64,000 nt of DNA. Origin: a virus (Duplodnaviria > Heunggongvirae > Uroviricota > Caudoviricetes). A program made the position numbers and the translations under genes. This document shows positions 1-44,085 of the stretch, in pieces. Positions within the stretch are counted from its first letter, which is position 1. Each line of letters opens with the position of its first letter. The stretch is taken from the IMG/VR virus record IMGVR_UViG_3300044451_000174, positions 10,722 to 74,721 of that record; one strand, written 5' to 3'. The notes under the pieces are model-generated. The model had not been told where the DNA came from, made no database searches, and saw only the letters and a list, made by a program, of their open reading frames with translations.

Positions 1-70
1 GCAGCATCGACCGGATCGAGGTCACGTCGTTCCCGAAGCCGAAGGCCGGTCCCGACGAGAGAGAGAAGAA

Positions 71-358
71 ATGATCACCGAAGAACAAGTGGAGCGGCTC
101 AATCTGGCGACCCTCGAAGGCGACCTCCCGTTGTGGGACGTGGTGATCGAGGGGAAGGAATGGACCGCTCTCTCGTTCGAGGGTGCGTGGTATCTGGCCC
201 CGGTCAACTTCAAGTTCGGCAACGAAACACATCCCGGCCAGCCGTACCTCGAAATGGACCCTGAGAAAATCACGGTCGTCGGCGAAGATTACTTGAAGTC
301 CCTCCCCAAGTGGGACTTCGATCACGTCAGCGGAAAGATCACACATGAACAATCTTGA
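71..358 (+). CDS. hypothetical protein (95 aa)
   Basis: Complete ORF. The next gene start overlaps its end. Confidence 0.45.
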   Translation: MITEEQVERLNLATLEGDLPLWDVVIEGKEWTALSFEGAWYLAPVNFKFGNETHPGQPYLEMDPEKITVVGEDYLKSLPKWDFDHVSGKITHEQS

Positions 359-1475
359 TAGGAAACGGGGCTGTCTGTACGGCCTCGCAATCGGTGACGC
401 TCTGGGGGCTGCGGTCGAGTTCCGTTCCCCCGGAACGTTTGCGTTGGTGACCACCTACCGTTCGGGCGGGCCGCACAGCCTCGCCAAAGGCCAGTGGACC
501 GACGACACGTCGATGGCTCTGGCGTTGGCGCACAGCATCGGCGAGAAGGGTTGGGATTTGAAGGACCAGATGAGCCGTTACTTGGACTGGTTCCAGAACG
601 GCCGCTACAGCGTGAACGGGTTCTGTTTCGACATCGGGTGTACGACCCGTGACGCCTTGATGAACTTCGAGCGCGACGGAGATCCCTGGAAGTCGGGCGA
701 CCCGGCACCCGGATCTTCGGGCAACGGCAGCATCATGCGATTGGCACCCGTTGCGATTCACACCGCCGATCTACTAGCCGAAGGCCACGTCAGCCCTCTC
801 ACCGAGAAAGCCTCAGACTCCAGTCAGGTGACGCACGCGAGCGACCAGTGTCGGTCGGCGTGTCGTTATATGAACTTGGTGCTGGCTGGCCTTATTAACG
901 GCGAGTCTAGGGAAACGGTGTTGGACCCGGAGTGGGAGCCGGTTCAGATTGCCAGGAAGTCCGAGCAATTCGACCCGTTGATCGAGAACGTGATTCAGGG
1001 GAGTTACCGGAACAAGACGCCGAACATGGTTCGTGGGTCGGGTTGGGTGGTGGCGTCTCTGGAAGCGGCTCTGTGGGCGTTCCACGACGCGGACAGTTTC
1101 GATGAGGCGGTACTTCGCGCCGTCAATCTGGGTGAGGACGCGGATACGACGGGTGCGGTGTGTGGGCAGTTTGCGGGGGCGTATTGGGGGTTGGGCGGGA
1201 TTCCGGCGAAGTTCGTGGACGGTTTGGACCGGAAGGACATGATCGAGTCGGCGTTGAAGGCGTTGGGTTGTCCGGCCCCGGCGCGGGAGTTGAAGGACTA
1301 CATTGATTTTGGTCCGAAGGAAGACGACGGGACGCGGGTGTGTCTGCACGAGAACGGCGGCAGCTATTATGGCGACACGAACCCGGCGACGTACAAGTGT
1401 ACACGAACCCGGCGACGTACAAGTGTAAGGATTGTGGGGGCTTCTTTTTGCAAGACGAGGCGGCGTGGCGGCTAG
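345..1475 (+). pseudogene. ADP-ribosylglycohydrolase (ARH/DraG family), frame broken near the C-terminus by a 26-bp tandem duplication
   Basis: N-terminal CLYGLAIGDALGAAVEF and DDTSMALALA motifs are typical of the ADP-ribosylglycohydrolase family. The frame shifts at 1375-1426. Removing one 26-bp copy joins this ORF in frame to ORF 1340..1729. Confidence 0.7.
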
Positions 1476-1729
1476 ATACCGTCATGAACTTCAAAGAATG
1501 GCTGACGATAGTCGAGGACACGAAGCGTTCGGGTGCCAAACTGGGTTTGTACCCGGACATTGTGAATTTGATGGGTCAGCACCCGCCGCTTTACGGAATG
1601 CCCCATGCGGCCGATTACATTACTTACTTGTACATCAAGTACGGTAAAGACGGCCCGCCGTCAGAGAACGGCATCATCAAAGTGAAACCCGGTCGGAACG
1701 TTACCGACCGCTACTTACCACCGGAGTGA
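1340..1729 (+). CDS. C-terminal continuation of the ARH fusion protein (translated alone only if the frameshift is real)
   Basis: Contains the same NPATYKC peptide as the end of 345..1475. A KDCGG Cys motif follows. Confidence 0.5.
   Translation: MSARERRQLLWRHEPGDVQVYTNPATYKCKDCGGFFLQDEAAWRLDTVMNFKEWLTIVEDTKRSGAKLGLYPDIVNLMGQHPPLYGMPHAADYITYLYIKYGKDGPPSENGIIKVKPGRNVTDRYLPPE
1375..1426 (+). repeat. perfect 26-bp tandem duplication acacgaacccggcgacgtacaagtgt, two copies
   Basis: Read directly in the sequence. Copy 1 is 1375-1400 and copy 2 is 1401-1426. Confidence 0.9.
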
Positions 1730-1730
1730 C

Positions 1731-2063
1731 ATGCACGACTTGGTTGCAGAGTGTCTGGCAAAAGGCATCCCCGTCATCAACTCGACCAGAACCGAGGAAG
1801 ATTACCGTGCCGAGCGGTTCAAGCAAGAAGAAGAAAACCTTGCGAACCACGTCTTCATCAGCGGCGTCAAGGATGAGGGCTGCCGGATCGATCCCGAAAC
1901 CAATCAGGTGATTCGCCGGATCTCGTTCGACTACAATTTCTTCCAGTCGTGTTTGCACTTAGGGGAGATGCACGATTTCGCTGGTGCGTTCGACGCCGAA
2001 CACAAGCAGCGGCTGGCGGATCAACTGTTCGCGGCACTGGAAAGGGCAGAGATCAGGCTATGA
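1731..2063 (+). CDS. hypothetical protein (110 aa)
   Basis: ORF. The next gene start overlaps its stop as ATGA. Confidence 0.5.
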   Translation: MHDLVAECLAKGIPVINSTRTEEDYRAERFKQEEENLANHVFISGVKDEGCRIDPETNQVIRRISFDYNFFQSCLHLGEMHDFAGAFDAEHKQRLADQLFAALERAEIRL

Positions 2064-2311
2064 AAACGATCTATACAGAAGACGAGATCCGGTCGATGAT
2101 TTCTAAGGTGACGGGTGTGTTCCCGAACATGATCAAGTTCGTGGTTCGCCGGGACGACGGTGCCAGACTGAACCGTTCGGATTTCGAGATCGAAGCGGAA
2201 TGTGAGATGCCCGCGCCGCCTCCGAGGACGGGCGACAAGTTGGAAGACGCACTGAACAAGTGTCGGCAGTGGGAAATGTCCGACGCGGAACTCGCAGAAC
2301 TGGAGAAATGA
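2061..2311 (+). CDS. hypothetical protein (83 aa)
   Basis: ATG at 2061 overlaps the upstream stop. Begins MKTIYTEDEIRS. Confidence 0.5.
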
Positions 2312-2577
2312 CCATGAACGAGATCAACTGGATCGAGGGGACGCCGGAAAAAGAGGGTCTGTACTGGGTACACGACATGCTCAACGGCGTGCTGTTCGCG
2401 ATGGTGGTCGCCATTGACGAGGAAGAGAACGGCAACAACCTGTACTACTACATCATGGGTTGCGACATGGGGTTCCCCGTGAGCCAACTCAGCCACTACT
2501 CCCCGGTGACGCCGCCGACGCCACCAGTAGGCACCAGCCACATCGTAGACCTCGGCGGCTACGAGGAGGAAGAATGA
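2308..2577 (+). CDS. hypothetical protein (89 aa)
   Basis: ATGA overlap with the upstream stop. Begins MTMNEINWIEG. Confidence 0.5.
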   Translation: MTMNEINWIEGTPEKEGLYWVHDMLNGVLFAMVVAIDEEENGNNLYYYIMGCDMGFPVSQLSHYSPVTPPTPPVGTSHIVDLGGYEEEE

Positions 2578-2813
2578 GACTGTTCGAGTTGAAGGAACTG
2601 GTTGACAAGCTATACGAGGACGAGGCCAACCACAACCTGAAGATCATCGCGTCCTGCGGATTCGATGATCTGAGTTATAGCGGCGTGGCGACGAGTTGTG
2701 AGATAGCGTTCCAACAGGACGACGGCTCGTGTTTCACGGAAGACCTCTACGAAGAGGGCGAAGAGATCGAGGGCGAGAAGGTTATCGTGATCGCCGGCTG
2801 GCAGGGCGATTAG
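2574..2813 (+). CDS. hypothetical acidic protein (79 aa)
   Basis: ATGA overlap. Begins MRLFELKELVDKLYEDE. Confidence 0.5.
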   Translation: MRLFELKELVDKLYEDEANHNLKIIASCGFDDLSYSGVATSCEIAFQQDDGSCFTEDLYEEGEEIEGEKVIVIAGWQGD

Positions 2814-3298
2814 TCCTTGAACATGTTGTCGTAGGCCGACCGGATCTTCTGCCGCAGGCCGACCAGTTCTTTGTACATGTCTTGCAGGTGATTGTTCCCG
2901 GCTGTTCCGGCCGTGCGGACGGTTTGACTGTAGCCATTTCCGCCGAGCCTTGAGACGGCGGAAGTCGCCATGTCGCCGTACCGCTCCGGGTTGTCTTTCA
3001 TGTCCGACACGATCATGTCGATGTCCTTCATGGCGTAGTAGACGCGGTTCGAGAGGGCGTCGGTGTGTTGCCCGGTTTCGATTTCGCCGCGTGTCGTGCT
3101 GTCCATGTTGATGATGGCGGAATAGAGCTTCTGGGCGGCGTCGGCGATGCCGTACACGTCCTGTTGCGGCACTTGCTGTTTGCCCTTGAGGTTGTTCATG
3201 AACTTGCGGATGGCGACAGCGGCCTCGAAGACGCTGTTGAAAGCGACCTGTGCGGGGTGAGAAAGGGACGATTCGATCCACTGACGGAAAGTTTGCAT
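2810..3298 (-). CDS. hypothetical protein (162 aa)
   Basis: Complete minus-strand ORF. It is divergent from the gene starting at 3333. Confidence 0.55.
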   Translation of the reverse strand: MQTFRQWIESSLSHPAQVAFNSVFEAAVAIRKFMNNLKGKQQVPQQDVYGIADAAQKLYSAIINMDSTTRGEIETGQHTDALSNRVYYAMKDIDMIVSDMKDNPERYGDMATSAVSRLGGNGYSQTVRTAGTAGNNHLQDMYKELVGLRQKIRSAYDNMFKD

Positions 3299-3332
3299 GC
3301 CTTAGTTATTGTCGGGAGCGGCTAAATAAGGC

Positions 3333-4610
3333 ATGGAATTCAGTATGTCATTCCGCTCGTTTATTGAGCTTGGGCCGCTGGACGTTACGGTCGAAGAGAT
3401 CGGCGGTCTTAGCGAACACGCGATCCTCGGCAACTACGAGGACGGCTACAAAAAGTTTCGCGTGACGTTCCACGCGCCGAAGAACCAGCGGAAGTGGAAG
3501 ACCGGCGACTTCGCCGAGGACGTGGTCTACGTCATCGCCGACAGCCCGCACACGGCCAAGAAGATGGCCCAGGAGTGGTTGGGCAACAAACTCGACCCCA
3601 GAGAGAACGACGAGAAGCCCCGCCGCGTCCCCAAAACCAACTACATGCGCAGCACGGAACGCCGGCACTTCGACATGCGGAGCCGCATCGTCGGAAGCTG
3701 GCGTCAGGTCGTTGAAATGTTGGGATACGCCGCCGAACGCCGCCACAACACCGTGGACTTCGTAGACGAACCGGAGCTTGAAATTCTGGTTGACGCACTG
3801 AAGGGCCGGGTCAAGCAGAAACTGATCGACGGGTTGAGCGAACCGGAGCGGAAGGGTCTGCGGCAGTTGTTGAAGGCGTCGAAGACGAATCCGGGGCAGT
3901 GGGGCGGGAAGCACGGGAAGGGTGCGGCGGATCTGGCCCGTGAACTGACGGTGATATTGTGGCCGCGCCGGGACAAGGAAGAGGGGATCGAGTCGGGTCC
4001 GGCGGCGAAGCCGGTCGAGGGCGGGTACGGCTACAAGAACAGCGTTTACCGCCGGAAGCTGACGAAGCGTGACGTGGACGCGATCATGAGCCGGGTGAAC
4101 ACTTACGGGGACGCCGTTCGCGAAGCGAATCGGCTCGGTATCCCGAAGTCCGAACTGGACGGCGTCGTTCAGTCGCGCTACGAACACAGCGACAGAGAGT
4201 ACGCCGAGAAGCGGATGATTTACGCCGACCTGTACAAGCGGCTGCACATCCCTTCGACCCACGACGCTTTCGGCGACGACCACGTCGCCAAATACTGGAG
4301 CAAGCGGAAGTTCGACTGGGAAGCGTATGCGACCGAGGTGTTGCCGACGTTCGGACTGGAGACTATTAGGAACAAGCCGGGGATGGAAGCCGGCTACCAA
4401 GACGACGACGAGTATTCGACGTGGGCGATAGACTGGTTGTGGAACCTGTACCGTTCCGGTCCTCCGCGTAGAGAGGGGACTGCGGCGACGAGGTACAAGG
4501 AGGCGTTGCACGAGATCCTGTCGGGTACGCTGGAGGACAAGAAGAACAAACGCGAGCCGGTGAAATACGTTCCCGGCGACATCTTCGGCGACGAGGAGAT
4601 TCCTTTCTGA
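3333..4610 (+). CDS. hypothetical protein (425 aa)
   Basis: Long ORF with non-repetitive composition. A TAAGG ribosome-binding site lies upstream. Confidence 0.6.
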   Translation: MEFSMSFRSFIELGPLDVTVEEIGGLSEHAILGNYEDGYKKFRVTFHAPKNQRKWKTGDFAEDVVYVIADSPHTAKKMAQEWLGNKLDPRENDEKPRRVPKTNYMRSTERRHFDMRSRIVGSWRQVVEMLGYAAERRHNTVDFVDEPELEILVDALKGRVKQKLIDGLSEPERKGLRQLLKASKTNPGQWGGKHGKGAADLARELTVILWPRRDKEEGIESGPAAKPVEGGYGYKNSVYRRKLTKRDVDAIMSRVNTYGDAVREANRLGIPKSELDGVVQSRYEHSDREYAEKRMIYADLYKRLHIPSTHDAFGDDHVAKYWSKRKFDWEAYATEVLPTFGLETIRNKPGMEAGYQDDDEYSTWAIDWLWNLYRSGPPRREGTAATRYKEALHEILSGTLEDKKNKREPVKYVPGDIFGDEEIPF

Positions 4611-5389
4611 TGAAACAGTTCACACGCTGGTTGTTGGAGAGCGTCGGCCGATTTTTGACCGACGACTTGGACGCGAAGCTGCAAGACATGGCGCAGAAGA
4701 TCGCCGACGCGGTGCCGCAGGTTTACCAGACCAGAGAGCCGGTGTCCCTCGGCCAGTTGATGTCGAAGCGGATGAACTCCGAGACGGGCAAGACGCAGCG
4801 ATTTCTCCGCACGTTCGAGGTAGTTTACGACGACCAGAGGATCGGTGCGGCGTGGGACGACGAGCGTAGCAACAAGGTGGTGGCGAACGCTTTCAAGTTG
4901 AAGGGGCGTTCGGCCGACGCGATCTACAGCATTCTGGTTCACGAATTGATCCACTCGACCGATCCGAGGGCCGGCGAACTGACGGGCAGTAGTGCGGACA
5001 TGAAGCTCGACAACGATGCCGACTACAAGAACTATTACAGTCTGCGGCACGAGTTCGACGCCTTCAGCGGAATGATCACCAACTGGATCGTGCGGAAGAT
5101 GAAGACGGCCGAGGAAGCGAAGGCGTTCCTTCAGAACGCGGCGCGGGGCAGGAGCGAGGGTTTGCCCCCGGATCTGGCTCCGAGGTTCGACAGGTTCATG
5201 AAGCTCGACCCGAAGTTGAGGAACAAATTCTTGAGAAGGGTGTACGAGGCCGTCAAATTGAAGATGTCCGGTCAAAAACCCCGGACCAGCGTTCCCCTCA
5301 ACAGAGGCGTTCACCAGCAACCGGGGTATACGGGCGAAGACGTACCGCAGACACAACAGCCGGCATACGTTCCGAAGACGACTCAGTGA
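4610..5389 (+). CDS. hypothetical protein with HExxH motif (putative zincin-like metallopeptidase)
   Basis: Contains ILVHELIHSTDP. Its start overlaps the upstream stop. Confidence 0.45.
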   Translation: MKQFTRWLLESVGRFLTDDLDAKLQDMAQKIADAVPQVYQTREPVSLGQLMSKRMNSETGKTQRFLRTFEVVYDDQRIGAAWDDERSNKVVANAFKLKGRSADAIYSILVHELIHSTDPRAGELTGSSADMKLDNDADYKNYYSLRHEFDAFSGMITNWIVRKMKTAEEAKAFLQNAARGRSEGLPPDLAPRFDRFMKLDPKLRNKFLRRVYEAVKLKMSGQKPRTSVPLNRGVHQQPGYTGEDVPQTQQPAYVPKTTQ

Positions 5390-5691
5390 CCGAGGCACTT
5401 GGCGACGATTTCCTCTGCGGTCATGGTCGCACGGATCTGTGACGGGATCTTGTTCTCTTTCTTGAGCAGGTGATCAAGGTACTTGTCAACTTCGCCGACA
5501 ATGTACACCTTCAGGTCGGCCACCTTTTTGTCGTACTCGGCGAACAGGTCGGCTTCGACGTTCGCCAGCTTTAAGTTGAGTTTGTTGTACTCGTCCGTCC
5601 TTTGAAGGAACGCCGCCCGGACGTTTTCCAGTGCCAGTTCCAGCGTGGCGATCTTCTCTTCTAGTTTCTTGTCCAACCACTGATTGCTCAT
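5383..5691 (-). CDS. hypothetical coiled-coil protein (102 aa)
   Basis: ORF with heptad-like composition. A GGAG ribosome-binding site and a TATAAT element sit upstream on the minus strand. Confidence 0.5.
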   Translation of the reverse strand: MSNQWLDKKLEEKIATLELALENVRAAFLQRTDEYNKLNLKLANVEADLFAEYDKKVADLKVYIVGEVDKYLDHLLKKENKIPSQIRATMTAEEIVAKCLGH

Positions 5692-5714
5692 TGTTTCTCC
5701 CGGTTGTGAGTTGA

Positions 5715-5720
5715 ATTATA
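5715..5720 (-). promoter_or_regulatory. candidate -10 element TATAAT for the minus-strand gene 5383..5691
   Basis: The plus-strand sequence attata reads TATAAT on the minus strand, about 22 nt upstream of the start codon. Confidence 0.3.
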
Positions 5721-5798
5721 ACCGGGCGGGACTCTGTTAAGAAACAAGAATGGCAATTCTCACAGGCTTCACTCCATACGGGAGAAGAAAGGGTTCAA

Positions 5799-6446
5799 AT
5801 GGCAATTCTCAAGGGGTTCCCGCCGAGCAACTGCATCAGTCCGACGATCCACATCACGGAGTACGATCTGAGTCAGATGGCGGGGTGTTACAACGTGACG
5901 GTTTCGGAGAAGGACTTGGAGCCGTACAAGGCCAAACCGCTGTCGAAAGCGGATCAGCAGAAGAAGTACCTTCTGGGCAACGTCTGGCTCCAGAAGAAGG
6001 AGTACGGCAAGTGTTTCCGGCTTGAGATCGAAGCGATGTTGGATCGGTTCAAGCCGCTCGGCATGAGTCTGGGCGTGGGCGAGAACATGATGAAGGATCT
6101 GATGCGGGTGGCGTCGGACGCGCAGGAAGTGTTCTGCCGGGACAACATGTCTTTCCAGAAGGGTCCGACGTGGTTCCTGTGGATGGAGTACCACGTCATT
6201 CACGCCCTGAGTGGGTTCCTCCAGACGGATCTGCGGCCGGCGTGGGTGAAGACGTGGGAGGGGTATGCCGGCGACGGCGTGTCGTGGGTGAAGTGGCGGA
6301 TGAGCGAGAAGCTGGACTACCCGACGCCGCTGGCGACCAGAATGAAGGAGGTCGATCCAGAGAGGTGCAAGGTGCGGGAGACGAAGACGAAGCCCCGCAA
6401 CGTGATTGCCACCAGAAAGCTGTCAACGTTGCAATACTGGTTCTAA
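5799..6446 (+). CDS. hypothetical protein (215 aa)
   Basis: Complete ORF followed by a terminator hairpin. Confidence 0.55.
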   Translation: MAILKGFPPSNCISPTIHITEYDLSQMAGCYNVTVSEKDLEPYKAKPLSKADQQKKYLLGNVWLQKKEYGKCFRLEIEAMLDRFKPLGMSLGVGENMMKDLMRVASDAQEVFCRDNMSFQKGPTWFLWMEYHVIHALSGFLQTDLRPAWVKTWEGYAGDGVSWVKWRMSEKLDYPTPLATRMKEVDPERCKVRETKTKPRNVIATRKLSTLQYWF

Positions 6447-9423: not shown

Positions 9424-9455
9424 GCGGGTATTTAGCTTCGGAGCATGGCGTTTGG

Positions 9456-9914
9456 ATGCTAAATACCGACATGAGAGACTTCAAGTTGTGGATCGAAGCG
9501 ATTGAATACCGCCCCGTCAGGAGCATTGCCGAGGCAAAGGTGTTGTCGCGGTCGAGCAGTCTAGACACTGCGGGGATGGATTTCGGCACTATTCAGAAGG
9601 CTCTCGCAGCACGCCGAGAAGTGACGTATCAGGAAATGTTTCCGTTGGCGAGCTTGGCGAACGTACCGGCCGGCGACAAGAAGAAGACTCTGGAAATGAT
9701 GGGAGCTTTCGCCCAGATGTTGGGCCGCGAGGCTCCAGACACGCTGGAACAGTCTCAAGCTCTGGCGGTGCGTGGTCCCGATTTCAGGAAGATGACGCCG
9801 CCAATCATCGTTTACAGCGACGACAGCGGCATTCGGGTTATGGACGGGGTGAGCCGCGTCAATGCGGCGCGGCTGCTAAAAGTGTCGGAACTGCGTGCGT
9901 TCGTGATCAAGTAA
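9456..9914 (+). CDS. hypothetical protein (152 aa), weak ParB-like C-terminus
   Basis: ORF. The DGVSRVNAARLL segment loosely resembles a ParB N-terminal domain. Confidence 0.4.
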   Translation: MLNTDMRDFKLWIEAIEYRPVRSIAEAKVLSRSSSLDTAGMDFGTIQKALAARREVTYQEMFPLASLANVPAGDKKKTLEMMGAFAQMLGREAPDTLEQSQALAVRGPDFRKMTPPIIVYSDDSGIRVMDGVSRVNAARLLKVSELRAFVIK

Positions 9915-10545: not shown

Positions 10546-10926
10546 CTACCTCTTTTTGGCGACCTTCTTGACTGAGTTGGTCGGCTTCTTCCTCGCCTTC
10601 GCGTTCTTGGGCGAGCCGTCCAGTTCGTTGATTGTAGGCCCGACGAGCCGCTTCTTGATCTCTTCTCGCCACCAATTGGCGATTTGTTCGTCGTGTTCGC
10701 TGCCGTCTCCCTCGAACCCGAACCGCACGAGGGAATCGTTGCCGATACCGTACTCGGCCGCGAGGACGCGACAGGTTTTCTTTTTGGTGCGGGCGAGTTG
10801 GCCCATGATGCAGTTCTGGTTCGAGAACATCTTGATCTCGTCCGGCTTGATCTTCCCGGCCCAACCGGGCCAGTGATCGTCCAACAGGTTCGCGCCGGCT
10901 TGAACGTGCTTTTGTGTCGTCTTCAT
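10546..10926 (-). CDS. hypothetical protein with a basic C-terminus (126 aa)
   Basis: Start at MKTTQK, which has an AAGGTG ribosome-binding site. A promoter-motif hairpin lies upstream. Confidence 0.45.
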   Translation of the reverse strand: MKTTQKHVQAGANLLDDHWPGWAGKIKPDEIKMFSNQNCIMGQLARTKKKTCRVLAAEYGIGNDSLVRFGFEGDGSEHDEQIANWWREEIKKRLVGPTINELDGSPKNAKARKKPTNSVKKVAKKR

Positions 10927-22484: not shown

Positions 22485-23069
22485 ATGAACCGATTTGCAA
22501 AGGAAACAATGTCGTTCGCAAACTACGTCAGACTTCGTAATCCACAACTCTTCGAGGCCATCGTCGGTGATCTGGGCATTGACCTGAGCGATCCAGGGAC
22601 GAGAGACGCCTTCGTTGCACAACTCCAACAGTCCGGCGCGGACCTCGAAAAAGTCGTCGCCAACGTACAGGCCAACCCGAACGCCAAACCCGACAAAGCG
22701 AAAATGGTCGCAGACCAAGAGTTCCAGAAGCAACAGAACATGCTCAACGGCAAAACCGTTCCGAAGGGCATCAACAAGAAAGACTGGGAGAGGGTTGTCG
22801 GCCTCATGACACCGACCGGCAAGCCAATTCCCAACCAGATCGGTAAGGGCAAAGGAGTCGATGTCGCCGGTGTATTGGAAAAGGGCGCGAAACAGGGCGC
22901 GGTGCCGGCGAACATCGACAAGCTGACCCCGCCGTGGTTGAAGATGAACAAGGTGACGCCGCCGGTCGCGTCTAAGACGCCGACAGTAGACCCGAAGCAC
23001 CCGATGACACCGAGCGAAGTAGCTGCGAGTAAAGCCAAGCCGAATCAGGTTATGGGCGGGGGAGCATAG
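22485..23069 (+). CDS. hypothetical Lys-rich protein (194 aa)
   Basis: A lone plus-strand ORF inside the minus-strand block. Confidence 0.45.
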   Translation: MNRFAKETMSFANYVRLRNPQLFEAIVGDLGIDLSDPGTRDAFVAQLQQSGADLEKVVANVQANPNAKPDKAKMVADQEFQKQQNMLNGKTVPKGINKKDWERVVGLMTPTGKPIPNQIGKGKGVDVAGVLEKGAKQGAVPANIDKLTPPWLKMNKVTPPVASKTPTVDPKHPMTPSEVAASKAKPNQVMGGGA

Positions 23070-35131: not shown

Positions 35132-38100
35132 ATGGCTGATCCGCAACTTCACGTCGTAGTCGATGCAATCGGCCGCAACGTAAACATGAACATCGACCCA
35201 AACCAGTGGGACGAACTGAAAAGTTCGATCACCGCCGGTATGAAGTCAGTTGTCGGGGAAGTCGCGTCGGTCATCAGCCAGAAAACGTCGTCCCAGTGCA
35301 AGTCAATCGAAGCAGCTTTGAACGAAATGAGTTCGAGTTTCGCTGAAGAAATATCGGGCCTGAAGCGGGTGATGAACGAACTCGGCCAGAAGATCGACAA
35401 CATCGGCAAGGGAACGGGAACCCCAACTCTCGGCGGCGACGTAAGCGGTTCCTTGGGCGTGATTCAAACGAACACTCAGGCCGTTTCCGACTACGTCACA
35501 GGAGAGTTCAAAACCGCGTTCGCTGGTCAGGCGTCCGACATTCGCGCAATGAAAGACATGGCGTCAACGCCGGGCAAGTTCTTCACACACGACCAAGAAA
35601 CACACAGACTACTAGGCGACTTGAAAGCCGCCATCGAAGCGTGCTGTCCGGGTTCTTCGATTGTTGACAAGACCCCATCCGTAGCTCCTTCGCCGACAGA
35701 AAGGGCGGCTCCGAGTGCGGCACCATCGGGTGGCGGTGGTGGCGGGGGTGGTGGCGGGGGCGGTGGCGGGCCGAGTCCGATGGACCGTGCCAGAGCATTT
35801 GAAGCGGCCATGAATGCCGCGACCACGTCAAACGAGGGCATGAACGACTCGCTCACGCGGGGTCGAAGGGCTTATCGTCAGCACCGCGAAGACATGATGG
35901 CGACGGATGACGCACTTGAAGGTTTCATCGGCCACGTCGCCGATCTTCAAGAGGCGTTTTTCGTCTTCTCGAAGGACATGAGTTTCTTGAAGGATACGTT
36001 CCTCGGCACCTTCAAGTCCATGTTCAAGGAAGCCGTACACGAAGAAGTCAAGTTCATCAAAGAGACGCGGGCCGCGATCAACGAGACGCAAGGTCTGACA
36101 GCCGAGACACGAGGTCTTCAAGACGCGATGACGGACATCGGCAAGACCGCCAAGACAACCGGCGTCGGCCGCTCCGAGTTCCAGGCGTCTTACCTGAAGG
36201 CTCTGAAGTCGGGCATCAAGGACCAGAAGATCGCGATGGCGGTTACGACGGCCCAGTTGAACACCGAGAAGCAGTTGGGTCTTGAGGCCGGCGAACTGAC
36301 CGAAGAGTTCATCAAGTGGAACAACCAGTACAACATGTCCACCATGCAGATCGCCGAAATGGGGCGGGGCATGCGGGACATCGCACGCTACACAGGCTTG
36401 ACGGGCAAGGAACTCGCCAACGCCGTCAAACAGGGTGACAACTTCGTTGAGGTTCTCCGCAACGCCGCCATGTTGAGTGCGAGCGCAGCCAAGAACGTCA
36501 TGGAGATCGCCGCCAACGCCCAAAAGATGGGTGTGACTAAGCAGATCGAACCGCTGATCAAGGCGATGGCATCGACCAACAACTTGTTCCGCGAAGCGTC
36601 GAGCGAGACTCGCGCCTTCCTGTTCCAAGCCGCCGCCCAGGTCGGTCGCACGGGCGACTTGATGAAGGGTACGATCCTCAAGACGAAGGGCGGCATCAAG
36701 GACATGGAGAAGGGCATGGAGATGATGCTGAAGAAATTCGGCGTCCAATCCGTTGAGGCCATCGACAACCTGTCCGACGAAGCCAAGATGAAGCTCAACC
36801 TCCAGTTGAAGGCCGCATACGGTCTTGAACTCGGCGAGTTGCAGCAGTCGCTGAAGGCGTTGAAAGAGTCCAGCAAAACCCTGGCCGACCGCCTCGATGA
36901 CATCCGCAAGAAACAACAAGGCAACCTCACGCTGGAAGAAAAACTGGCGTTGAAGGAAGAGGAGCGTCGTCTCAAAACGAGCAAGAGCTTCGAGATGTTG
37001 ACGAGTTTGGACGAGGCGGCTAAGGGCGCTAAGGACATGAACGCCGCGTTGTCCAAGTTCGGAGAAAGAAGGAAGGACTTCGAGGGCGACCTGAAGGCGA
37101 TGGGTAAGTCGTGGGGCAGCAACGCCGGTGCAGCCCGTGACGCCATCAACGAAGCTTTGAAGGGTGTCAACGAGTCGCTGAAGGCGTCCGGCAAGTCGGA
37201 ACTGAGTATCGACTCTTCTGAGATCGAGAAGGCGTTGAAAGACCCTGCGGCGTTCCGCGAACTGTCGGCCAAGTTGACTAAGGCCGAACAAGAAGCCGCG
37301 ACCGCACAGAAGGCCGCTCTGGACCCGATGAGCAAGATCGAGCAGGGCGTCCGCGAACTGAACGACACGATGAGGAACTTCACCAGCAGTTTCCTTTCAA
37401 GTTACATGAACTTGACGGGAGTGTTGGGCGTATTGGCTCCGCTCTTGGGCATGATGGCGGCACAACAGGCGTTGTCCATCGCACGGTGGCGGGCCGACAA
37501 GGACTTCGGTGTGATGGGTGTGCTTAAAAAAGGCTTGGGCAAGATCTTCGGTTACGGCGGCAAGAAGAAGGGCGGGGCGGGGGACGTTGCACCCGGTGCG
37601 GCGGCTGGTTCAGGAGTTGATGCGGGCAAGGGCGTCGAGGCTTTGGCAAAAGACGGTTTGGGCGGCGTGTCTCACGTCGAAGACGACACGGTAGCAGGGT
37701 TGCTGCGTCAGTTGCTTCACTGCCTGTGCAGTCCGAAGGCCAACGGGATCGAGAACGACGAGTTCAAAAACATCGGCAAGAAGAATAAGGCCAATGCCGC
37801 CCAGATCGAACAAGGAGCGGTCGCCAAAGCGGAGAAGAAGGCGGGCGGGGCAGCGGCCAAAGAAAAAAGCAAGGCGTCGGCTGGTGGCGACGACACCAAA
37901 TCGATCCTAGACAAGATCGAGAAACTGAAGGGGGACGGACCAAGAATCGCTAAAGCGGCCGGCATCATCGCGGCACTGACAATCGGAATCGTGCTGTTGG
38001 GCGCGGTGTTGATCAAGTTGGCTAACATGTTGTTCAGCAAATTGAAGCTGGACATCAAGACGGTCATCGAGACGGCCGCGATCATCGGCGTGATCATGGG

Positions 38101-41100
38101 AGCGGCTGGACTGATCGGCACCGCCTTGTACTACGCCAAGCCACACCTCGACAAACTCGCGGATGCCGAAAAGGACATCAACGCGATGGTCAAGAACATG
38201 TGGAAGGGCGCTAAGGCGTTGGCGAAGTTGTCGGGTCCGCTGCTCGTGTTTGCGGCGGAACTCGCGATCTTCGGCAAGATCGTTCTGGGTGCGTTGGGGC
38301 TGAGTCCGGGCAGGTTGCTCCTGATCGCCGGAACGTGGATCGCGTTGGCTCTCGGTATCGCCGGAATCGCGGAAGCGATTGTCCGGTCTGGGCCGATGTA
38401 CGCACAACTCCCGGTCGCCACGAAGATGATGCACACGCTCCACAAAGAACTGTGGGCCGCTGTAGGTGCGTTCGGACTCGTGACTCTGCCGCTGATCGCG
38501 TTCGCCGCAATCATGGCGTTGTTCGGTTACGTCGTGATCGACAAGTTCGGGTTGACTCCGGGCCGCATGTTCGCCATTGCAGCGACGTGGTTGATCCTCG
38601 CCGTCGCGGTCGGAGCCATCGGGTACGCTCTCACGGCTTCGTTGCCGGGATGGGCGACAATGGGTGCCGGTCTGAGTGCCGTGTGGTCGATCTATCCGAT
38701 GCTGTGGAGTGCGGTGGCGGCGTTCGCGCTAGTCAGCTTGCCGCTCATCGCGTTCGCGGGCCTTCTCGCACTGTTCGGATACGTTGTCATCGACAAGTTC
38801 GGCCTGAGTCCGGGCCGCATGTTCGCCATTGCAGCGACGTGGTTGATCCTCGCCGTCGCGGTCGGAGCCATCGGGTACGCTCTTGCCGCCTCGTTGCCCG
38901 GATGGGTAACGATGGGTGCCGGTCTGTCGGTGATCTGGGCGTTGATGCCGGTGTTGCTAAACGCAGTGGCCGCATTCGCCTTAGTGAGTCTGCCGATCAT
39001 CGCGTTCGCGGCACTTCTTGCAGGGTTCGGGTACATCGTAATTGATCAACTCGGATTGACTCCGGGCCGTATGTTCCAGATTGCAGCGACATGGTTGATC
39101 CTCGCCGTCGCGGTCGGGGCCATCGGTTACGCTCTAACGGCATCGTTGCCCGGATGGGTAACGATGGGTGTCGGTCTGGGTGTGATCTGGTCGCTGCTCC
39201 CCCTGTTGTTCATGGCGGTTGCGGCCTTCGCGCTAGTGAGTTTGCCAATCGTGGCGTTCGCTGCGATTCTGGCCGCGTTCGGGACAATCGTAATTGACGA
39301 GCTTGGGTTGACGCCGAGTCGGATGTTCGACATCGCGGCGACGTGGCTGGTACTGGCAATCGGTATTGGGGCAATCTCCTACGCACTGATTGAGGCGACT
39401 CCGGGCTGGAGCATGTTGGGTATCGCCTACCCGTTCCTGCTTTACGCATACGGCTTGATGTGGTTGGGCGTGGGAGCATTCGCACTGGTAAGCTTGCCGA
39501 TTCTCGCTCTGGCCGAGATCATCGCCGAGTTCGGCGACACGCTTGACGAACTGGGTCTGACCCCGGAACGGATGAAGCAGATCGGCGAGACGTTCGTGAC
39601 GCTGTCTGAGACGATTGGCGAATTGTGCATGTCGATGTTGGGAGCCACCGCGAAATTGGCGGTCCTCGGCGTTCTGAGCATCTTCTCCGTTCTGATGATG
39701 AGCCTCGCGATGTTGGGCGTCGGTGCCTTCGCGGTGCTGGCGATCCCGATTTTGGCTCTTGGCAGTGCGATCTCCAACTTCGGCCGGACGATCATTGACG
39801 ACATGGGCCTGACCCCAGAACGAATGCAAGCCATTCAAGATTCGTTCACCTCGTTGACCGACACGATTAGGAGCCTGTCTTGGAAAATGATTTCGGCAAC
39901 GGCGTCACTATCGTTATTGGGCGTGCTTTTGATATTCTCAACTTTGGCTTCCACGTTTATATGGATGGGCGCGTTGGCATTCCTCGTGATGATGGGGCCG
40001 TTCCAGTTCTTGGCATACATGCTTTCCAAGTTCGCCGAATCAGTTGACATTGAAGGGGTGAAAAAAGCTGGTGAAATTTGCGAGGCGATTGCCAAGACGA
40101 TTAGTACGATTCCGCCAGTCATCAAGTCACTAACCGACGAATTATTACCGTTGATGGAACCGCGTTGGTGGGGTCTTGTTGGGCCAAGCAAGATGGAAAA
40201 AGCTCTTAAGGTAACAACAGGTTTCTTCAGTAAGAACTTTGCAGCAATCTTGAGTTTTATTTCTTACGGCATTATTGATCCAATCTTTGGCATTGGTCCC
40301 GGTGCCGCAGGTGTTAAACTCAATCCTCGCGACATTCAGACGGCCGCGAACGTGATGAAGGGGCTGGCTGATATGCTACCCGCTATTCCACCTGTGATTG
40401 ACGCACTGAATGGCCCAATTGCCGATCTGTCTAAAAAAAGTTGGTTTGGATACGGCAGTAACAAATTAGAAAAAACTCTGAATAAACTAAAAGACGGTTT
40501 CCATTCAAGTTTTGCGGCAATTTTGAATTTCATTTCTTACGGTATTATTGATCCGATATTTGGTATCGGTGCCGGTGCTTTTGGCACTAAACTAAATCCA
40601 CGAGATGTTCAAACCGCCGGTAAGATTATGAGTGGGTTGGCAGAAATGCTACCTGCTATTCCACCTGTGATTGACGCACTGAATGGCCCAATTGCCGATC
40701 TGTCTAAAAAAAGTTGGTTTGGATACGGCAGTAACAAATTAGAAAAAACTCTGAATAAACTAAAAGACGGTTTCCATTCAAGTTTTGCGGCAATTTTGAA
40801 TTTCATTTCTTACGGTATTATTGATCCGATATTTGGTATCGGTGCCGGTGCTTTTGGCACTAAACTAAATCCACGAGATGTTCAAACCGCCGGTAAGATT
40901 ATGAAGGGGCTGGCAGAAATGCTACCTGCTATTCCACCTGTGATTGACGCACTGAATGGCCCAATTGCCGATCTGAGCAGCAAAGGCTGGTTCAGCGGCA
41001 AGAATAAGTTGCAGAAAACGTTAGCCAAGTTGCAACAAGGTTTCCAGCAGAACTTCACGGCGATTTTAAGTTTCATATCACATGGTATTATTGGCCCTAT

Positions 41101-43204
41101 ATTCGGTGCCGGCCAAGCCGAGGGCGAGGGCATTATGTTAAACCCACGCTACATTCAAATGGCTGCAAATGTGATGAAAGGTCTGGCCGATATGCTTCCG
41201 GCCATCGGAACCATGATTGACACTCTCGGCAGTGGAATTCAGAAAATCCTGAAAAGCAGCAAAATGCGGATGAAGATGGACGCAATCGAAACGTTCGCGA
41301 CATGGTTCGCGAACGTAGCCCGCTTGCTGACCGAAGGTATGGTGATTCCGATCAAGACGCAGTTCCCGACCGTGGACGAAGTTCAGGACATGGGCGGAAG
41401 ACTTGAAGGAATGACGCAGATCGTTGCCAAATTGCCGAAGTTCATGGAGGATCTGTACTCCAAGATTAAAGAAGGTTTGGCACTGTTAGATCAAAACAAG
41501 ATCGAGGGCAACGAGGTAACACGATTTACGATATGGTTCTATAACGTTGCCTCGATGTTGAACTTCGGTATTGTGATGCCGATCACGACCGGATTCCCGC
41601 CACAGAAAGAAGCGGACGACGCTATCGCCAAGCTCGACAAGATGACAGAGATCGTATCAAAGTTGCCGTCAATCGTTCAGAGCTTGAGCGAGGCGACGGC
41701 CGGCGCTCGCGAGATGATGAAGAGTTCGGGCATTTGGGGCGCGTACCGCGACATGGACATGTTCATGTGGGAAGCGGGCTTCATCATCCGTCGCGGCGTG
41801 ATGGAGCCGATGCAGACATGGCCGAAAGACAGCGAGATGACCGACGCCGTTGCCCGCATCACCAAGATGGACGAAATGTTCAAGACGATGGCTCAGGCTA
41901 TGGAAAGCATGGCCGCGTCAGCTAAAGCTATGGCTTCTGTTGATCTAAGTCAGTCTATGAACATGGGGAGTTTGGGCAACCCTGAAAATGGCAACTTAGC
42001 CGAGTTCGTGAGTGCGTTCGCGGAACAGAACGCCGAGTCGATGGGCATGAACGATACTAATTCTTTGGTTGATGTGATGGGTCAACAATCTCCACAAATC
42101 ACATCGATGCAAAGTGCTTTGCGAATTGTCGAGAACTACACCCACGACATCAAGGATCTGTTCGAGCGGTCGTCCAGTGTCATCGGTGACATCCAGAAGA
42201 CCAGCGAGTACATGTCGATGTTCGGTGATTTGGACTTCTACGAGAACCAGATCTCCGAGAAGATCGCGCAGAGCAAGCAGTTCGTGCCGACCGTCCAGAG
42301 GATTGCAGAGAACATCGGTAAAGGCTTCGACTTTGCCGGCGGCAAGGCGTTGCTCGAAACCATCGCCGGACAGAAAGTCCGCATGGATGAAATGGCGGCG
42401 GGTCTGAAGGAAACAGAAGACTACACCAAGAAATTGGCGGAAATCTTCACGATGGCGAACAACGCCGTCAACATGATCAAGCAGACCACCAACAACCTGA
42501 CGCAACTCAATGCCATCAAAGACGTTGAGAAAGAAATTACGGCCAAGATCGCGTCGGGCAACAGCTTCATGGTGTCGGTGTTGAAGACGGTCGAGGCGGT
42601 CGCCACCAACTTCGGAACCAACGAAGAGGTCAAGACGACTCTGATGGGTGTGCAGGCCAAGATCAAGGCGGCGGGCGACACGAATCAGGCGTTGACCGAC
42701 TCTTTAAAGTTCATCGAGACGGTTAAACAGTTGCAGAGCAACGTGTTGTCAATCGGCCAAATGGCCAAAGACAAGCCGCTTGGCGGTGGCGTGCCGGGTG
42801 CCGGCGCTCCTGTCAGCATCCCGGCCGCTAAGACCGGATTGAGTACGCCTGAGCCGGTACAGACCGCTTCGACAACGGGCGCGGCCAACTTGGACGTTGA
42901 GAAGACGATCATGAGAGATCAGGCGACTTCTCAGCCGCCGGCCGGTGGCAACAAGAACGCGGTCGATTTCAGCAACTTGCAGAAGGCGATTGAAGAGAAC
43001 AAGATGACCAACGACGAGATCCTCAGCGTGCTTCAGGCCATGTTGCGGCTGATGACGCCGCGTTCTGGAAGCAACACGGCACCGGGCGGGGACACGAATA
43101 CATATTCGCGTCCCGACAAGCCGGCTGCTTACTACCGCGCACCCGTTGGCGACTTCAACAGTTCCGCAGGTAAGGGTGCCACCAACATGGTAAGGACCAG
43201 ATAA
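35132..43204 (+). CDS. tail tape measure protein (TMP), 2690 aa, with internal tandem repeats and multiple transmembrane hairpins
   Basis: Giant ORF directly upstream of the baseplate genes. It has alpha-helical low-complexity regions, a Gly14 run, 252-bp repeats that encode paired transmembrane helices, and 273-bp repeats. Confidence 0.7.
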   Translation: MADPQLHVVVDAIGRNVNMNIDPNQWDELKSSITAGMKSVVGEVASVISQKTSSQCKSIEAALNEMSSSFAEEISGLKRVMNELGQKIDNIGKGTGTPTLGGDVSGSLGVIQTNTQAVSDYVTGEFKTAFAGQASDIRAMKDMASTPGKFFTHDQETHRLLGDLKAAIEACCPGSSIVDKTPSVAPSPTERAAPSAAPSGGGGGGGGGGGGGGPSPMDRARAFEAAMNAATTSNEGMNDSLTRGRRAYRQHREDMMATDDALEGFIGHVADLQEAFFVFSKDMSFLKDTFLGTFKSMFKEAVHEEVKFIKETRAAINETQGLTAETRGLQDAMTDIGKTAKTTGVGRSEFQASYLKALKSGIKDQKIAMAVTTAQLNTEKQLGLEAGELTEEFIKWNNQYNMSTMQIAEMGRGMRDIARYTGLTGKELANAVKQGDNFVEVLRNAAMLSASAAKNVMEIAANAQKMGVTKQIEPLIKAMASTNNLFREASSETRAFLFQAAAQVGRTGDLMKGTILKTKGGIKDMEKGMEMMLKKFGVQSVEAIDNLSDEAKMKLNLQLKAAYGLELGELQQSLKALKESSKTLADRLDDIRKKQQGNLTLEEKLALKEEERRLKTSKSFEMLTSLDEAAKGAKDMNAALSKFGERRKDFEGDLKAMGKSWGSNAGAARDAINEALKGVNESLKASGKSELSIDSSEIEKALKDPAAFRELSAKLTKAEQEAATAQKAALDPMSKIEQGVRELNDTMRNFTSSFLSSYMNLTGVLGVLAPLLGMMAAQQALSIARWRADKDFGVMGVLKKGLGKIFGYGGKKKGGAGDVAPGAAAGSGVDAGKGVEALAKDGLGGVSHVEDDTVAGLLRQLLHCLCSPKANGIENDEFKNIGKKNKANAAQIEQGAVAKAEKKAGGAAAKEKSKASAGGDDTKSILDKIEKLKGDGPRIAKAAGIIAALTIGIVLLGAVLIKLANMLFSKLKLDIKTVIETAAIIGVIMGAAGLIGTALYYAKPHLDKLADAEKDINAMVKNMWKGAKALAKLSGPLLVFAAELAIFGKIVLGALGLSPGRLLLIAGTWIALALGIAGIAEAIVRSGPMYAQLPVATKMMHTLHKELWAAVGAFGLVTLPLIAFAAIMALFGYVVIDKFGLTPGRMFAIAATWLILAVAVGAIGYALTASLPGWATMGAGLSAVWSIYPMLWSAVAAFALVSLPLIAFAGLLALFGYVVIDKFGLSPGRMFAIAATWLILAVAVGAIGYALAASLPGWVTMGAGLSVIWALMPVLLNAVAAFALVSLPIIAFAALLAGFGYIVIDQLGLTPGRMFQIAATWLILAVAVGAIGYALTASLPGWVTMGVGLGVIWSLLPLLFMAVAAFALVSLPIVAFAAILAAFGTIVIDELGLTPSRMFDIAATWLVLAIGIGAISYALIEATPGWSMLGIAYPFLLYAYGLMWLGVGAFALVSLPILALAEIIAEFGDTLDELGLTPERMKQIGETFVTLSETIGELCMSMLGATAKLAVLGVLSIFSVLMMSLAMLGVGAFAVLAIPILALGSAISNFGRTIIDDMGLTPERMQAIQDSFTSLTDTIRSLSWKMISATASLSLLGVLLIFSTLASTFIWMGALAFLVMMGPFQFLAYMLSKFAESVDIEGVKKAGEICEAIAKTISTIPPVIKSLTDELLPLMEPRWWGLVGPSKMEKALKVTTGFFSKNFAAILSFISYGIIDPIFGIGPGAAGVKLNPRDIQTAANVMKGLADMLPAIPPVIDALNGPIADLSKKSWFGYGSNKLEKTLNKLKDGFHSSFAAILNFISYGIIDPIFGIGAGAFGTKLNPRDVQTAGKIMSGLAEMLPAIPPVIDALNGPIADLSKKSWFGYGSNKLEKTLNKLKDGFHSSFAAILNFISYGIIDPIFGIGAGAFGTKLNPRDVQTAGKIMKGLAEMLPAIPPVIDALNGPIADLSSKGWFSGKNKLQKTLAKLQQGFQQNFTAILSFISHGIIGPIFGAGQAEGEGIMLNPRYIQMAANVMKGLADMLPAIGTMIDTLGSGIQKILKSSKMRMKMDAIETFATWFANVARLLTEGMVIPIKTQFPTVDEVQDMGGRLEGMTQIVAKLPKFMEDLYSKIKEGLALLDQNKIEGNEVTRFTIWFYNVASMLNFGIVMPITTGFPPQKEADDAIAKLDKMTEIVSKLPSIVQSLSEATAGAREMMKSSGIWGAYRDMDMFMWEAGFIIRRGVMEPMQTWPKDSEMTDAVARITKMDEMFKTMAQAMESMAASAKAMASVDLSQSMNMGSLGNPENGNLAEFVSAFAEQNAESMGMNDTNSLVDVMGQQSPQITSMQSALRIVENYTHDIKDLFERSSSVIGDIQKTSEYMSMFGDLDFYENQISEKIAQSKQFVPTVQRIAENIGKGFDFAGGKALLETIAGQKVRMDEMAAGLKETEDYTKKLAEIFTMANNAVNMIKQTTNNLTQLNAIKDVEKEITAKIASGNSFMVSVLKTVEAVATNFGTNEEVKTTLMGVQAKIKAAGDTNQALTDSLKFIETVKQLQSNVLSIGQMAKDKPLGGGVPGAGAPVSIPAAKTGLSTPEPVQTASTTGAANLDVEKTIMRDQATSQPPAGGNKNAVDFSNLQKAIEENKMTNDEILSVLQAMLRLMTPRSGSNTAPGGDTNTYSRPDKPAAYYRAPVGDFNSSAGKGATNMVRTR
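38450..39960 (+). repeat. about six tandem 252-bp (84-aa) repeats inside the TMP gene encoding paired transmembrane helices
   Basis: Near-identical stretches such as ccgggccgcatgttcgccattgcagcgacgtggttgatcctcgccgtcgcggtcggagccatcgggtacgct recur at 252-bp spacing. The peptide repeat is FALVSLPLIAFA...GLTPGRMF..IAATWLILAVAVGAIGYAL. Confidence 0.7.
40230..41050 (+). repeat. three tandem 273-bp (91-aa) near-identical repeats inside the TMP gene, AT-richer than their surroundings
   Basis: Antisense ORFs at 40336, 40609 and 40882 are spaced exactly 273 bp apart. The peptide repeat ILNFISYGIIDPIFGIGAGAFGTKLNPRDVQTAGKIM..LPAIPPVIDALNGPIADLSKKSWFGYGSNKLEKTLNKLKDGFHSSFAA occurs three times. Confidence 0.75.
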
Positions 43205-43749: not shown

Positions 43750-44076
43750 GTGACAGTGGCCAACTTCTTTGAAGAAACGAACATAAACCCCAGAACTTAC
43801 TTCACTGCCGCGAGTCGGTATTCCGACTCGACCATCTGCTATTACACGGACATGAAACGCCTGTCACTTACGACGTACAAGCGTGGCGTTTCTGCCGTGA
43901 CCCCCAACGACAAATTCATGGTAATCGGGAAGGGCCAAGAGTACCGTCCCGATCTGGTCAGTAGTCGCGTCTACGGTCTGCCCGATTTCTGGTGGCGGAT
44001 CATGGAGGCTAACGGGATCTACGACATTTACGACTTCAAGGCCGGCGTCAACATCCGAATCCCCTCAATGATCTAA
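43750..44076 (+). CDS. LysM-like tail protein (P2 gpX / T4 gp53-like)
   Basis: PDLVSSRVYGLPDFWWRIMEANGIYDIYDFKAGVNIRIP fits a LysM pattern. Confidence 0.55.
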   Translation: MTVANFFEETNINPRTYFTAASRYSDSTICYYTDMKRLSLTTYKRGVSAVTPNDKFMVIGKGQEYRPDLVSSRVYGLPDFWWRIMEANGIYDIYDFKAGVNIRIPSMI

Positions 44077-44085
44077 GGAAAACGT

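Follow-up and report, generated by a model that had tools for sequence, protein, structure and literature searches.

Characterised DraG-like ADP-ribosylhydrolases (ARHs) cleave arginine or serine linkages, and Tri1 and Lmo0067 are immunity proteins that reverse ADP-ribosylation by toxins (PMC8120803). Phage ARH genes have already been catalogued, as a PHROG family, in the annotations of isolates and in a published survey (PMC9503650), which reports ADP-ribosylglycohydrolases (ARGs) from ~5% of jumbo phages and predicts that they deconjugate macromolecular ADP-ribose (Iyer et al. 2022, PMC9503650); no experimental test of a stand-alone phage ARH is cited in the surveys of these genes that were consulted. 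Here we describe an ARH gene and its small downstream neighbour in 64,000 nucleotides of a Caudoviricetes virus (IMG/VR record IMGVR_UViG_3300044451_000174, positions 10,722 to 74,721), which we refer to as the window; coordinates are those of the window and of its forward strand unless marked (-). We consider it probable that this locus comprises two genes of a large tailed phage or phage-like element, the first encoding a metal-dependent ARH and the second an autonomous small protein, where a preliminary description had read positions 345-1729 as one gene, encoding an ARH fused to an extra C-terminal domain.

By its profile matches, the assignment of the first gene to the ARH family is correct and solid. 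Residues 9-288 of its product, the catalytic domain (369-1208), match Pfam PF03747 (ADP_ribosyl_GH) at E=5.4e-73 and 246.6 bits, against a cutoff of 26.2, over profile positions 1-286 of 287, and PHROG 6572 ('ADP-ribosylglycohydrolase') is matched at E=5e-64. A sequence search of the PDB placed the Thermus protein 2CWC first (3.5e-60) and Serratia Tri1 (6DRE) second (5.3e-57), followed by Listeria Lmo0067 (8ZA7, 3.5e-36) and DraG (2WOC, 6.7e-27), with ARH3 more distant. The GDALG and DDTSMALA motifs, from which the preliminary description had placed the domain in the ARH/DraG family, are both present (residues 17-21 and 53-60, window 393-407 and 501-524), and this placement holds, given the PF03747 match and an aligned, conserved and complete set of metal-binding Asp and Thr residues (T52-D53-D54 and D265-A-D267-T268).

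The first of these clusters (498-506, within WTDDTS) is a proposed metal-ligand triad that is identical in the alignments to Tri1, 2CWC and DraG, and the other (1137-1148, within EDADTTG) is a proposed second ligand cluster conserved in Tri1, 2CWC, Lmo0067 and DraG; we take both to be metal ligands by reference to the DraG and ARH3 structures. E25 (417-419) aligns with Glu28 of DraG in 2WOC, the Glu-flap glutamate, and D96 (630-632, within CFDIG) with the DraG-class catalytic Asp97, in a column where 2WOC has D and the D97N mutant 2WOE has N. Metal and catalytic positions are invariant or nearly so across 17 homologues, with T52-D53-D54, D265-A-D267-T268 and E25 invariant. The signature residues of DraG are E28, D60 and D97 and the signature of Tri1 is E-D-D (PMC8120803; PMC7050489), and Asp97 is crucial and class-specific in DraG, being missing from ARH1 and ARH3 (PMC7050489); D96 gives the window protein this class-specific aspartate. 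As read from these alignments, the catalytic set is complete. The protein would be a metal-dependent mono-ADP-ribosylhydrolase of the DraG/Tri1 type, in which a binuclear Mn/Mg centre would be held by T52, D53 and D54 together with D265, D267 and T268, with D96 and E25 assisting. Ratios of nonsynonymous to synonymous substitution (dN/dS) of 0.065 and 0.093, against the homologues on the related contigs L010 and L006 respectively, point to strong purifying selection on the catalytic domain.

Structural comparison was made with an AlphaFold2 (AF2) model of a 76% identical relative (P0002), which has a mean predicted local distance difference test (pLDDT) score of 88.9 (above 90 for most of residues 1-310) and consists of helices throughout residues 1-306, giving this relative the compact all-alpha ARH fold. 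Foldseek matched the model to Tri1, 2CWC, Lmo0067, DraG and ARH3 with probability 1.00. The best structural match is Tri1, the immunity protein to the type VI secretion system toxin Tre1 of Serratia proteamaculans (6DRE/6DRH), on which the model superposes with a root-mean-square deviation of 1.4 Å over 308 columns (range 1.4-1.9 Å, 36-37% identity). Tri1 removes ADP-ribose from arginine, and the window protein has in common with it the E-D-D signature and the CFDIG, WTDDTS and DADxxG motifs. However, the window protein is without the ~65-residue N-terminal extension that in Tri1 plugs the active site of the toxin (the match begins at Tri1 residue 66-68, profile position 66, and the window protein starts 2-3 residues earlier), no ADP-ribosyltransferase (ART) toxin was found beside its gene, and it has a zinc-knuckle-like tail that Tri1 does not. 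DraG of Rhodospirillum rubrum has the same fold, the same metal ligands and the aspartate equivalent to D96, yet it is a much weaker match, and neither a DraT partner nor a nitrogenase context is found at the window ARH, no DraT or nif genes being present among the Pfam matches of the window. The best sequence match, 2CWC, an ADP-ribosylglycohydrolase-related protein of Thermus thermophilus, has Gly at the position of D96, and Lmo0067 comes from an ART-ARH effector-immunity pair, whereas the window gene has no paired ART.

The ARG/ARH genes of Erwinia, Serratia BF, Salmonella Munch/7t3, Bacillus G, Aeromonas and Streptomyces phages (PHROG 6572) belong to the same family, but the clade of the window protein is closer to cellular ARHs of planctomycetes and has a tail of its own. 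BAH, which is prophage-encoded and provides immunity to the prophage ART Bxa of Bacteroides stercoris, is likewise an ARH that reverses ADP-ribosylation (PMC11699363), but it is encoded beside its cognate ART, and no ART was found beside the window ARH. A functional precedent is offered by AdfN, a phage NADAR protein, and by DarG2-like macrodomain factors, which are phage-borne 'orphan antitoxins' that erase the ADP-ribose marks of defence systems. AdfN erases the marks of DarT1, and adfN of phage RB69 is inactivated by a single-nucleotide frameshift (PMC11825919); a DarG2-like antitoxin reported from a chimallivirus is a further precedent for an orphan antidote (PMC13309987). The folds of these factors are unrelated to that of ARHs, however, and their substrate is ADP-ribosylated DNA, not protein arginine.

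Contrary to the reading of the locus as a single gene, its two open reading frames (ORFs) lie in different frames. The ARH ORF, of 376 aa, runs from an ATG at 345 to a TAG at 1473-1475, is identical to a database protein (P0001), aligns at its N-terminus with homologues, and comprises the catalytic domain followed by part of a tail and by 24 residues that are out of frame. It lies within a co-directional run of small genes, overlapping an upstream 95-aa ORF by 14 nt and ending 8 nt ahead of the second ORF, an 81-aa gene of no assigned function (1484-1729). The two can be joined only on paper: when one copy of a 26-bp repeat near the end of the ARH ORF is removed by hand, an open frame of 452 aa results, to which the repaired, duplication-free gene of the preliminary description evidently refers. 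A search of 5.8 billion protein clusters gave no 452-aa protein. Its best match was the 376-aa form, and all of the top 120 matches left the 81-aa part uncovered; the only one to exceed 79% coverage of the query, P0115 (88%), is an ARH-phosphatase fusion. Neither a 452-aa nor a 364-aa allele of the window genotype was recovered by protein search.

What had been described as an extra C-terminal domain is instead an independent, conserved small gene. When the tail and the part downstream of it were used as a query, all matches were to the last 81 residues only, and 8 of the 10 were proteins of 81-82 aa with the same Met start and 59-100% identity; the stand-alone homologues of 81 aa are 59-89% identical. 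Members of this family (P0122-P0160, and those on contigs L010-L012) have a near-invariant core, KLGLYPDI..LMGQHPPLYG.P.AADY.TY..I.YG..GPP, and a HMMER profile search of 1.84 billion representatives gave 31 clusters (at 50% identity), all of 41-165 aa and thus too small to hold an ARH domain. An ARH fusion was found in none of the 10 relatives examined, and on contigs L011 and L012 the 81-aa gene is far from any ARH (on L011 it lies near an RNA ligase). The protein itself had no Pfam, PHROG-level or PADLOC match, and its AF2 model (pLDDT 45.6) is too poor for a fold search. One relative of 222 aa (P0129) has an insertion of ~140 aa with an FDYDGVLH motif; a HAD-type identity for this insertion was considered and dropped, Pfam giving only E=0.07 to a 5'-nucleotidase.

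Comparison with related contigs indicates how the two genes came to lie so close together. On L010, the closest relative with both genes, a 175-aa gene lies between them, and the ARH, of 364 aa and matching the window at 84% nucleotide identity, ends in ...YKCNDCGDCFLKGEMV*. On L006 the ARH, of 352 aa, ends 7 residues past the CxxC motif of its tail (intact relatives end 7-10 residues past it), and the gene that follows is a homologue of window 2260-2577, with no 81-aa gene present. By DNA alignment the window lineage lacks the 175-aa gene of L010, whose stop codon corresponds in position to the TAG at 1473-1475 (GGCTAGATACCGTCATG in the window, GGCTAAATACCAGCATG in L010). On this comparison of sequences, the 452-aa read-through frame arose incidentally, when the lineage lost both the intervening gene and the stop codon of the ARH, and is not an evolved fusion. 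It may be speculated that the duplication 'rescued' termination after the loss of the 175-aa gene, which fits the shared position of the stop.

The catalytic domain is followed, in the ARHs of the window, L010 and L006, by a common, lineage-specific tail of ~45-55 aa (in the window its first part lies at 1269-1400, with C333, H335 and C352). Its motif, C-x-H-x(16-18)-C-x-x-C, retains the full CxxC in L010 and L006, and we infer from it a zinc-knuckle-like structure; in the AF2 model of P0002 the tail forms three short strands at low confidence (pLDDT 54-70). In the window the tail is interrupted by a tandem duplication of 26 bp, ACACGAACCCGGCGACGTACAAGTGT, noticed in the preliminary description and here found to be exact, by Tandem Repeats Finder (100% matches) and by a test of string identity. 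The two copies (1375-1400 and 1401-1426, together 1375-1426) are identical, and the frame downstream of them is shifted; this is the only perfect tandem repeat in the window and the only one with a period that is not a multiple of three. Its position, past the third putative zinc ligand and before the fourth, means that C333, H335 and C352 are kept and C355 is lost, and the CxxC half of the knuckle is replaced by 24 out-of-frame, Arg-rich residues, TRTRRRTSVRIVGASFCKTRRRGG, which end at the TAG (1401-1475).

As L010 and L006 hold a single copy of the 26-mer, the duplication is derived, and it is missing from relatives of 76-92% protein identity. It is also recent, given that its copies are identical and that the tail, taken in its un-duplicated frame, has a dN/dS of 0.098 against L010. 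Tails are missing altogether from the ARHs of contigs L007 and L013 and from thousands of cellular homologues of ~307 aa (tail-less homologues include P0003 and P0004), which implies that the catalytic domain stands on its own. The recent frameshift costs the protein the CxxC half of its tail and adds the Arg-rich residues; catalytic activity would probably survive and any tail-dependent targeting would be lost. Programmed frameshifting past the duplication was considered and rejected, no canonical X XXY YYZ heptamer being found by reading the sequence, as was a -1 slip on the T5 run at ~1442-1446, which would regain the old frame only past the CxxC codons and would not restore the knuckle.

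The duplicated form is recorded repeatedly. The 376-aa product occurs on 9 contigs, from Joint Genome Institute (JGI) samples 3300045004, 3300045005 and 3300045010 and from Logan assemblies (SRR35359074, SRR35364242 and others), and both copies of the 26-mer were present in all five of the contigs that were fetched (L001-L005). The contigs with the duplication show 100% identity to the window across as much as 10.4 kb and among themselves across 13.7 kb, and thus represent one genotype recovered by two assembly pipelines from several samples, which is good evidence against an assembler artefact but no evidence of independent biological occurrences. Exact-pattern scans of IMG/VR and of JGI metagenome contigs with the junction sequences gave no match, the duplicated form included, those collections being evidently without these samples.

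Syntenic ARH genes exist in the phage-like contigs L006, L007/L008, L010 and L013, each with a conserved gene of 415-425 aa at a similar distance downstream. The closest tail-less ARH to the window clade is P0004 (71% identity), on L013 (GCA_040384205.1, JAWVGZ010000010.1, 586,525 bp), where it lies amid dozens of small ORFs without Pfam matches, together with the syntenic 415-aa gene; L013 is a megaphage or else a prophage region of very large size, with a relationship to the window phage, and an IMG/VR contig of 532,729 bp (L018) was noted together with it. More widely, ARH genes are annotated in 49 isolated phage genomes, mostly of jumbo phages, and occur on at least 208 IMG/VR contigs, as recovered by only two peptide patterns, yet the window ARH is at most 44% identical to those of isolates and at most 62% identical to those of the IMG/VR contigs. 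Its nearest cellular homologues are 60-64% identical, the named matches coming from Rubinisphaera, Thalassoroseus and Pirellulales, and the Rubinisphaera homologue (P0046) is a stand-alone chromosomal gene in an ordinary context, with no toxin neighbour. A scan of GTDB genomes for close relatives gave only an irrelevant partial match of 40% in a Chloroflexi metagenome-assembled genome. These similarities suggest capture of the ARH from a planctomycete-like host. Some ARH homologues carry fused dual-specificity phosphatase domains, an architecture described for 'ARG-centric' bacterial systems including those of planctomycetes (Iyer et al., PMC9503650). What is new here is modest: a clade of phage ARHs that are of planctomycete type and end in a zinc-knuckle-like tail, an allele in which this tail is naturally frameshifted, and the conserved family of small genes to which the neighbour belongs.

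By analogy with its closest characterised relatives, the enzyme would most likely cleave the N-glycosidic bond between ADP-ribose and arginine on proteins of the infected cell. As to its purpose, our leading guess among several, advanced tentatively, is that it erases ADP-ribose marks made by a host or competitor ART, in counter-defence or in immunity. The notion of an 'orphan antidote' agrees with the known function of Tri1 and Lmo0067 in counteracting ART toxins, Tri1 and the anti-DarT factors of the NADAR and macrodomain folds make a role in counter-defence plausible by analogy, and the genomic setting is that of an orphan antitoxin, a phage-borne Tri1/Lmo0067 homologue with no adjacent ART found. 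Of the possible targets DarT itself seems unlikely, because in the literature consulted it is macrodomain or NADAR enzymes that remove its marks (PMC11825919) and the characterised DraG-like enzymes act on arginine or serine linkages. A more ambitious version of the counter-defence idea, which we regard as rather improbable, holds that the tailed, planctomycete-type phage ARHs would be true anti-defence enzymes that erase the immune marks of host ARTs, and so the first counter-defence factor with an ARH fold, beside those of the NADAR and macrodomain folds. In this version the tail might direct the ARH to nucleic acid or to a specific protein target, and the duplication would be a loss, attenuation or slippage-reversible allele that segregates in the wild, similar to the frameshift of adfN in RB69.

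Several observations weigh against the proposed role. No ART family was present among the listed Pfam matches (25 of 28 families) of the 72 ORFs in the window, in the 4.8 kb upstream (known from other contigs; E<=1) or in ~6 kb downstream (E<=0.1), and the scans of window and flanks revealed no defence gene and no other gene for NAD or ADP-ribose metabolism near the ARH; PADLOC gave no match. Among 150 neighbours of 38 other viral ARH genes (four neighbours each), no recurrent partner or ART was found in the 25 of 60 families that are listed; two NADAR and two cytidylyltransferase-like proteins were present according to Pfam. The product scores below the cutoffs of the NCBIfam equivalogs for both Tri1 (NF041672, 255 bits against 490) and DraG (TIGR02662, 139.4 bits against 337), and on these scores it is neither DraG nor Tri1 in a strict sense, so that substrate specificity is not confidently transferable from either. 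The structural model, moreover, is that of P0002 and not of the window protein, the Arg-rich out-of-frame tail could destabilise the protein, and the frameshifted gene may be heading for loss.

Alternative explanations deserve consideration alongside an orphan antidote. The ARH could be the immunity or antitoxin partner of an ART encoded by the phage itself, or a timer for a host-takeover enzyme similar to Alt/Mod of T4, arrangements of this kind being documented as the prophage Bxa/BAH pair (PMC11699363) and as ART-ARG pairs of Aeromonas phages (PMC9503650). The absence of an ART from the listed Pfam matches of the 72 ORFs and from both flanks weakens this explanation, although the search covered about half of a contig that is 125.8 kb or longer and divergent ARTs can escape Pfam, and we regard it as unlikely. 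A role in hijacking host physiology is about as unlikely: a captured ARH would reverse endogenous regulatory ADP-ribosylation, as DraG does for nitrogenase, and so sustain metabolism. Regulation of this kind was first exemplified by DraG (PMC8120803), and the 60-64% identity to stand-alone chromosomal ARHs of Planctomycetota without a toxin neighbour agrees with this possibility, but Iyer et al. (PMC9503650) placed the ARG systems of planctomycetes in conflicts with viral ARTs and not in housekeeping. Somewhat more credible, though still improbable, is that the gene is a decaying pseudogene, the duplication having inactivated an accessory gene that was no longer needed and that now has no functional product. 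The frameshift does remove half of a tail formerly under purifying selection, and a comparable event in RB69 inactivates AdfN (PMC11825919), yet the lesion lies downstream of the entire catalytic domain (residues 1 to ~308), which is otherwise free of defects, many homologues have no tail at all, and the identity of the repeat copies means that no decay has accumulated.

Two further explanations have very little in their favour. Under the one set out in the preliminary description, the locus would encode a single 452-aa ARH fusion that serves as an antidote to DarT-type or mRNA-ADP-ribosylating defences. Although the frame is uninterrupted once a repeat copy is removed and relatives of ARHs do serve as antidotes, this model is already largely refuted, and we give it only a slight chance: the 81-aa part belongs to an autonomous family in which no ARH fusion was seen, in L010 the 175-aa gene intervenes between it and the ARH and in L006 it does not follow the ARH, intact relatives of the ARH terminate shortly past the CxxC, the best database match is the 376-aa form with the 81-aa part left uncovered, the joined frame looks like a by-product of the intervening gene and stop loss, and in the literature consulted DarT reversal relies on other folds (PMC11825919). 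Least likely of all is that the duplication is an artefact of assembly or sequencing and the true gene intact. All contigs with the duplication are 100% identical and probably come from one project; however, the duplication was reproduced by JGI and Logan assemblies in at least five samples or runs, an exact 26-bp tandem copy is atypical of assembler error, and no other out-of-frame repeat occurs in the 64 kb.

With the locus read as two genes, a possible expression signal can be assigned to the second. The motif GCTAGATA (1471-1478) lies 5 nt upstream of the ATG of the 81-aa gene, and its general form, GCTARATA, occurs five times in the window, against 0.47 copies expected by shuffling. The other copies are at 3321-3328, 9429-9436(-), 9458-9465 and 26908-26915(-); four of the five lie 2-5 nt upstream of predicted starts, and the fifth (9458-9465) overlaps a start. 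Looser TAAATA/TAGATA variants precede starts at 22485, 24226(-) and 57073. L010 has GGCTAAATACCAGCATG at the same place ahead of its 81-aa gene, and from its position the motif looks like a gene-start signal belonging to that gene. Such a signal could act as a promoter specific to the phage or, in leaderless transcripts, as a -10-like element. A scan of window 1-6000 for promoters and terminators found nothing above the shuffled expectation.

The wider context agrees with the phage setting given in the preliminary description. The window (GC content ~57%, no tRNA genes) encodes gp25-like and other baseplate wedge proteins, a spike OB domain (Phage_base_V) and a P2-I-like tail protein (Tail_P2_I), in addition to a CCA-adding enzyme, a LAGLIDADG endonuclease and many small ORFs without matches, and these families mark it as part of a tailed phage, or phage-like element, of large size; the contig is at least 125.8 kb long. 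No close relative and no near-identical DNA was found among 50,697 deposited phages (INPHARED). Several other genes are of note. A 679-aa protein (31526-33565(-)) matches the Major Vault Protein (MVP) shoulder domain (PF11978, E=6.7e-21) and, weakly, an MVP repeat, which is unusual in a phage. A 2690-aa ORF (35132-43204, forward strand), with no PHROG match, contains in-frame internal repeats at 38480-39346 (252 bp, 3.4 copies, 78% matches) and 40238-40975 (273 bp, 2.7 copies, 91% matches), and GC content drops to 0.47 over 40-42 kb. A low-GC island at ~44000-46000 (0.44 vs ~0.57) holds a 477-aa ORF (44086-45519, forward strand) with atypical codon-position GC and no Pfam match, and may be an inserted mobile element. 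The LAGLIDADG_2 homing-endonuclease match has E=4.7e-21, and the protein with a CCA-adding/PolyA_pol head domain is of 516 aa (25355-26905(-)). The latter belongs to an RNA and nucleotide toolkit among the matches of the 72 ORFs, which also includes HAD_SAK_1 (the 'Swiss Army Knife' RNA repair HAD), a nucleoside 2-deoxyribosyltransferase-like protein, GmrSD_N, SET and ParB_N. In the cluster of small genes upstream of the ARH, contig L015 encodes an AstE/AspA-type protein (succinylglutamate desuccinylase/aspartoacylase) of 236 aa (E=4e-9; 3523-4233(-) of L015), ~0.9 kb upstream of window position 1 and on the opposite strand.

At the level of annotation, our analyses show that the apparent extra domain of this ARH is artefactual, the product of a reading that crosses the frameshift and runs on into the following gene. 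The intact alleles of L010 and L006 and the frameshifted allele of the window nevertheless provide a natural comparison for the role of the zinc-knuckle tail. If the ARH is active during infection, it would represent a third fold, after the macrodomain and NADAR, by which phages may reverse ADP-ribosylation, and protein-arginine ADP-ribosylation would be a contested mark in phages that probably infect the poorly studied Planctomycetota.

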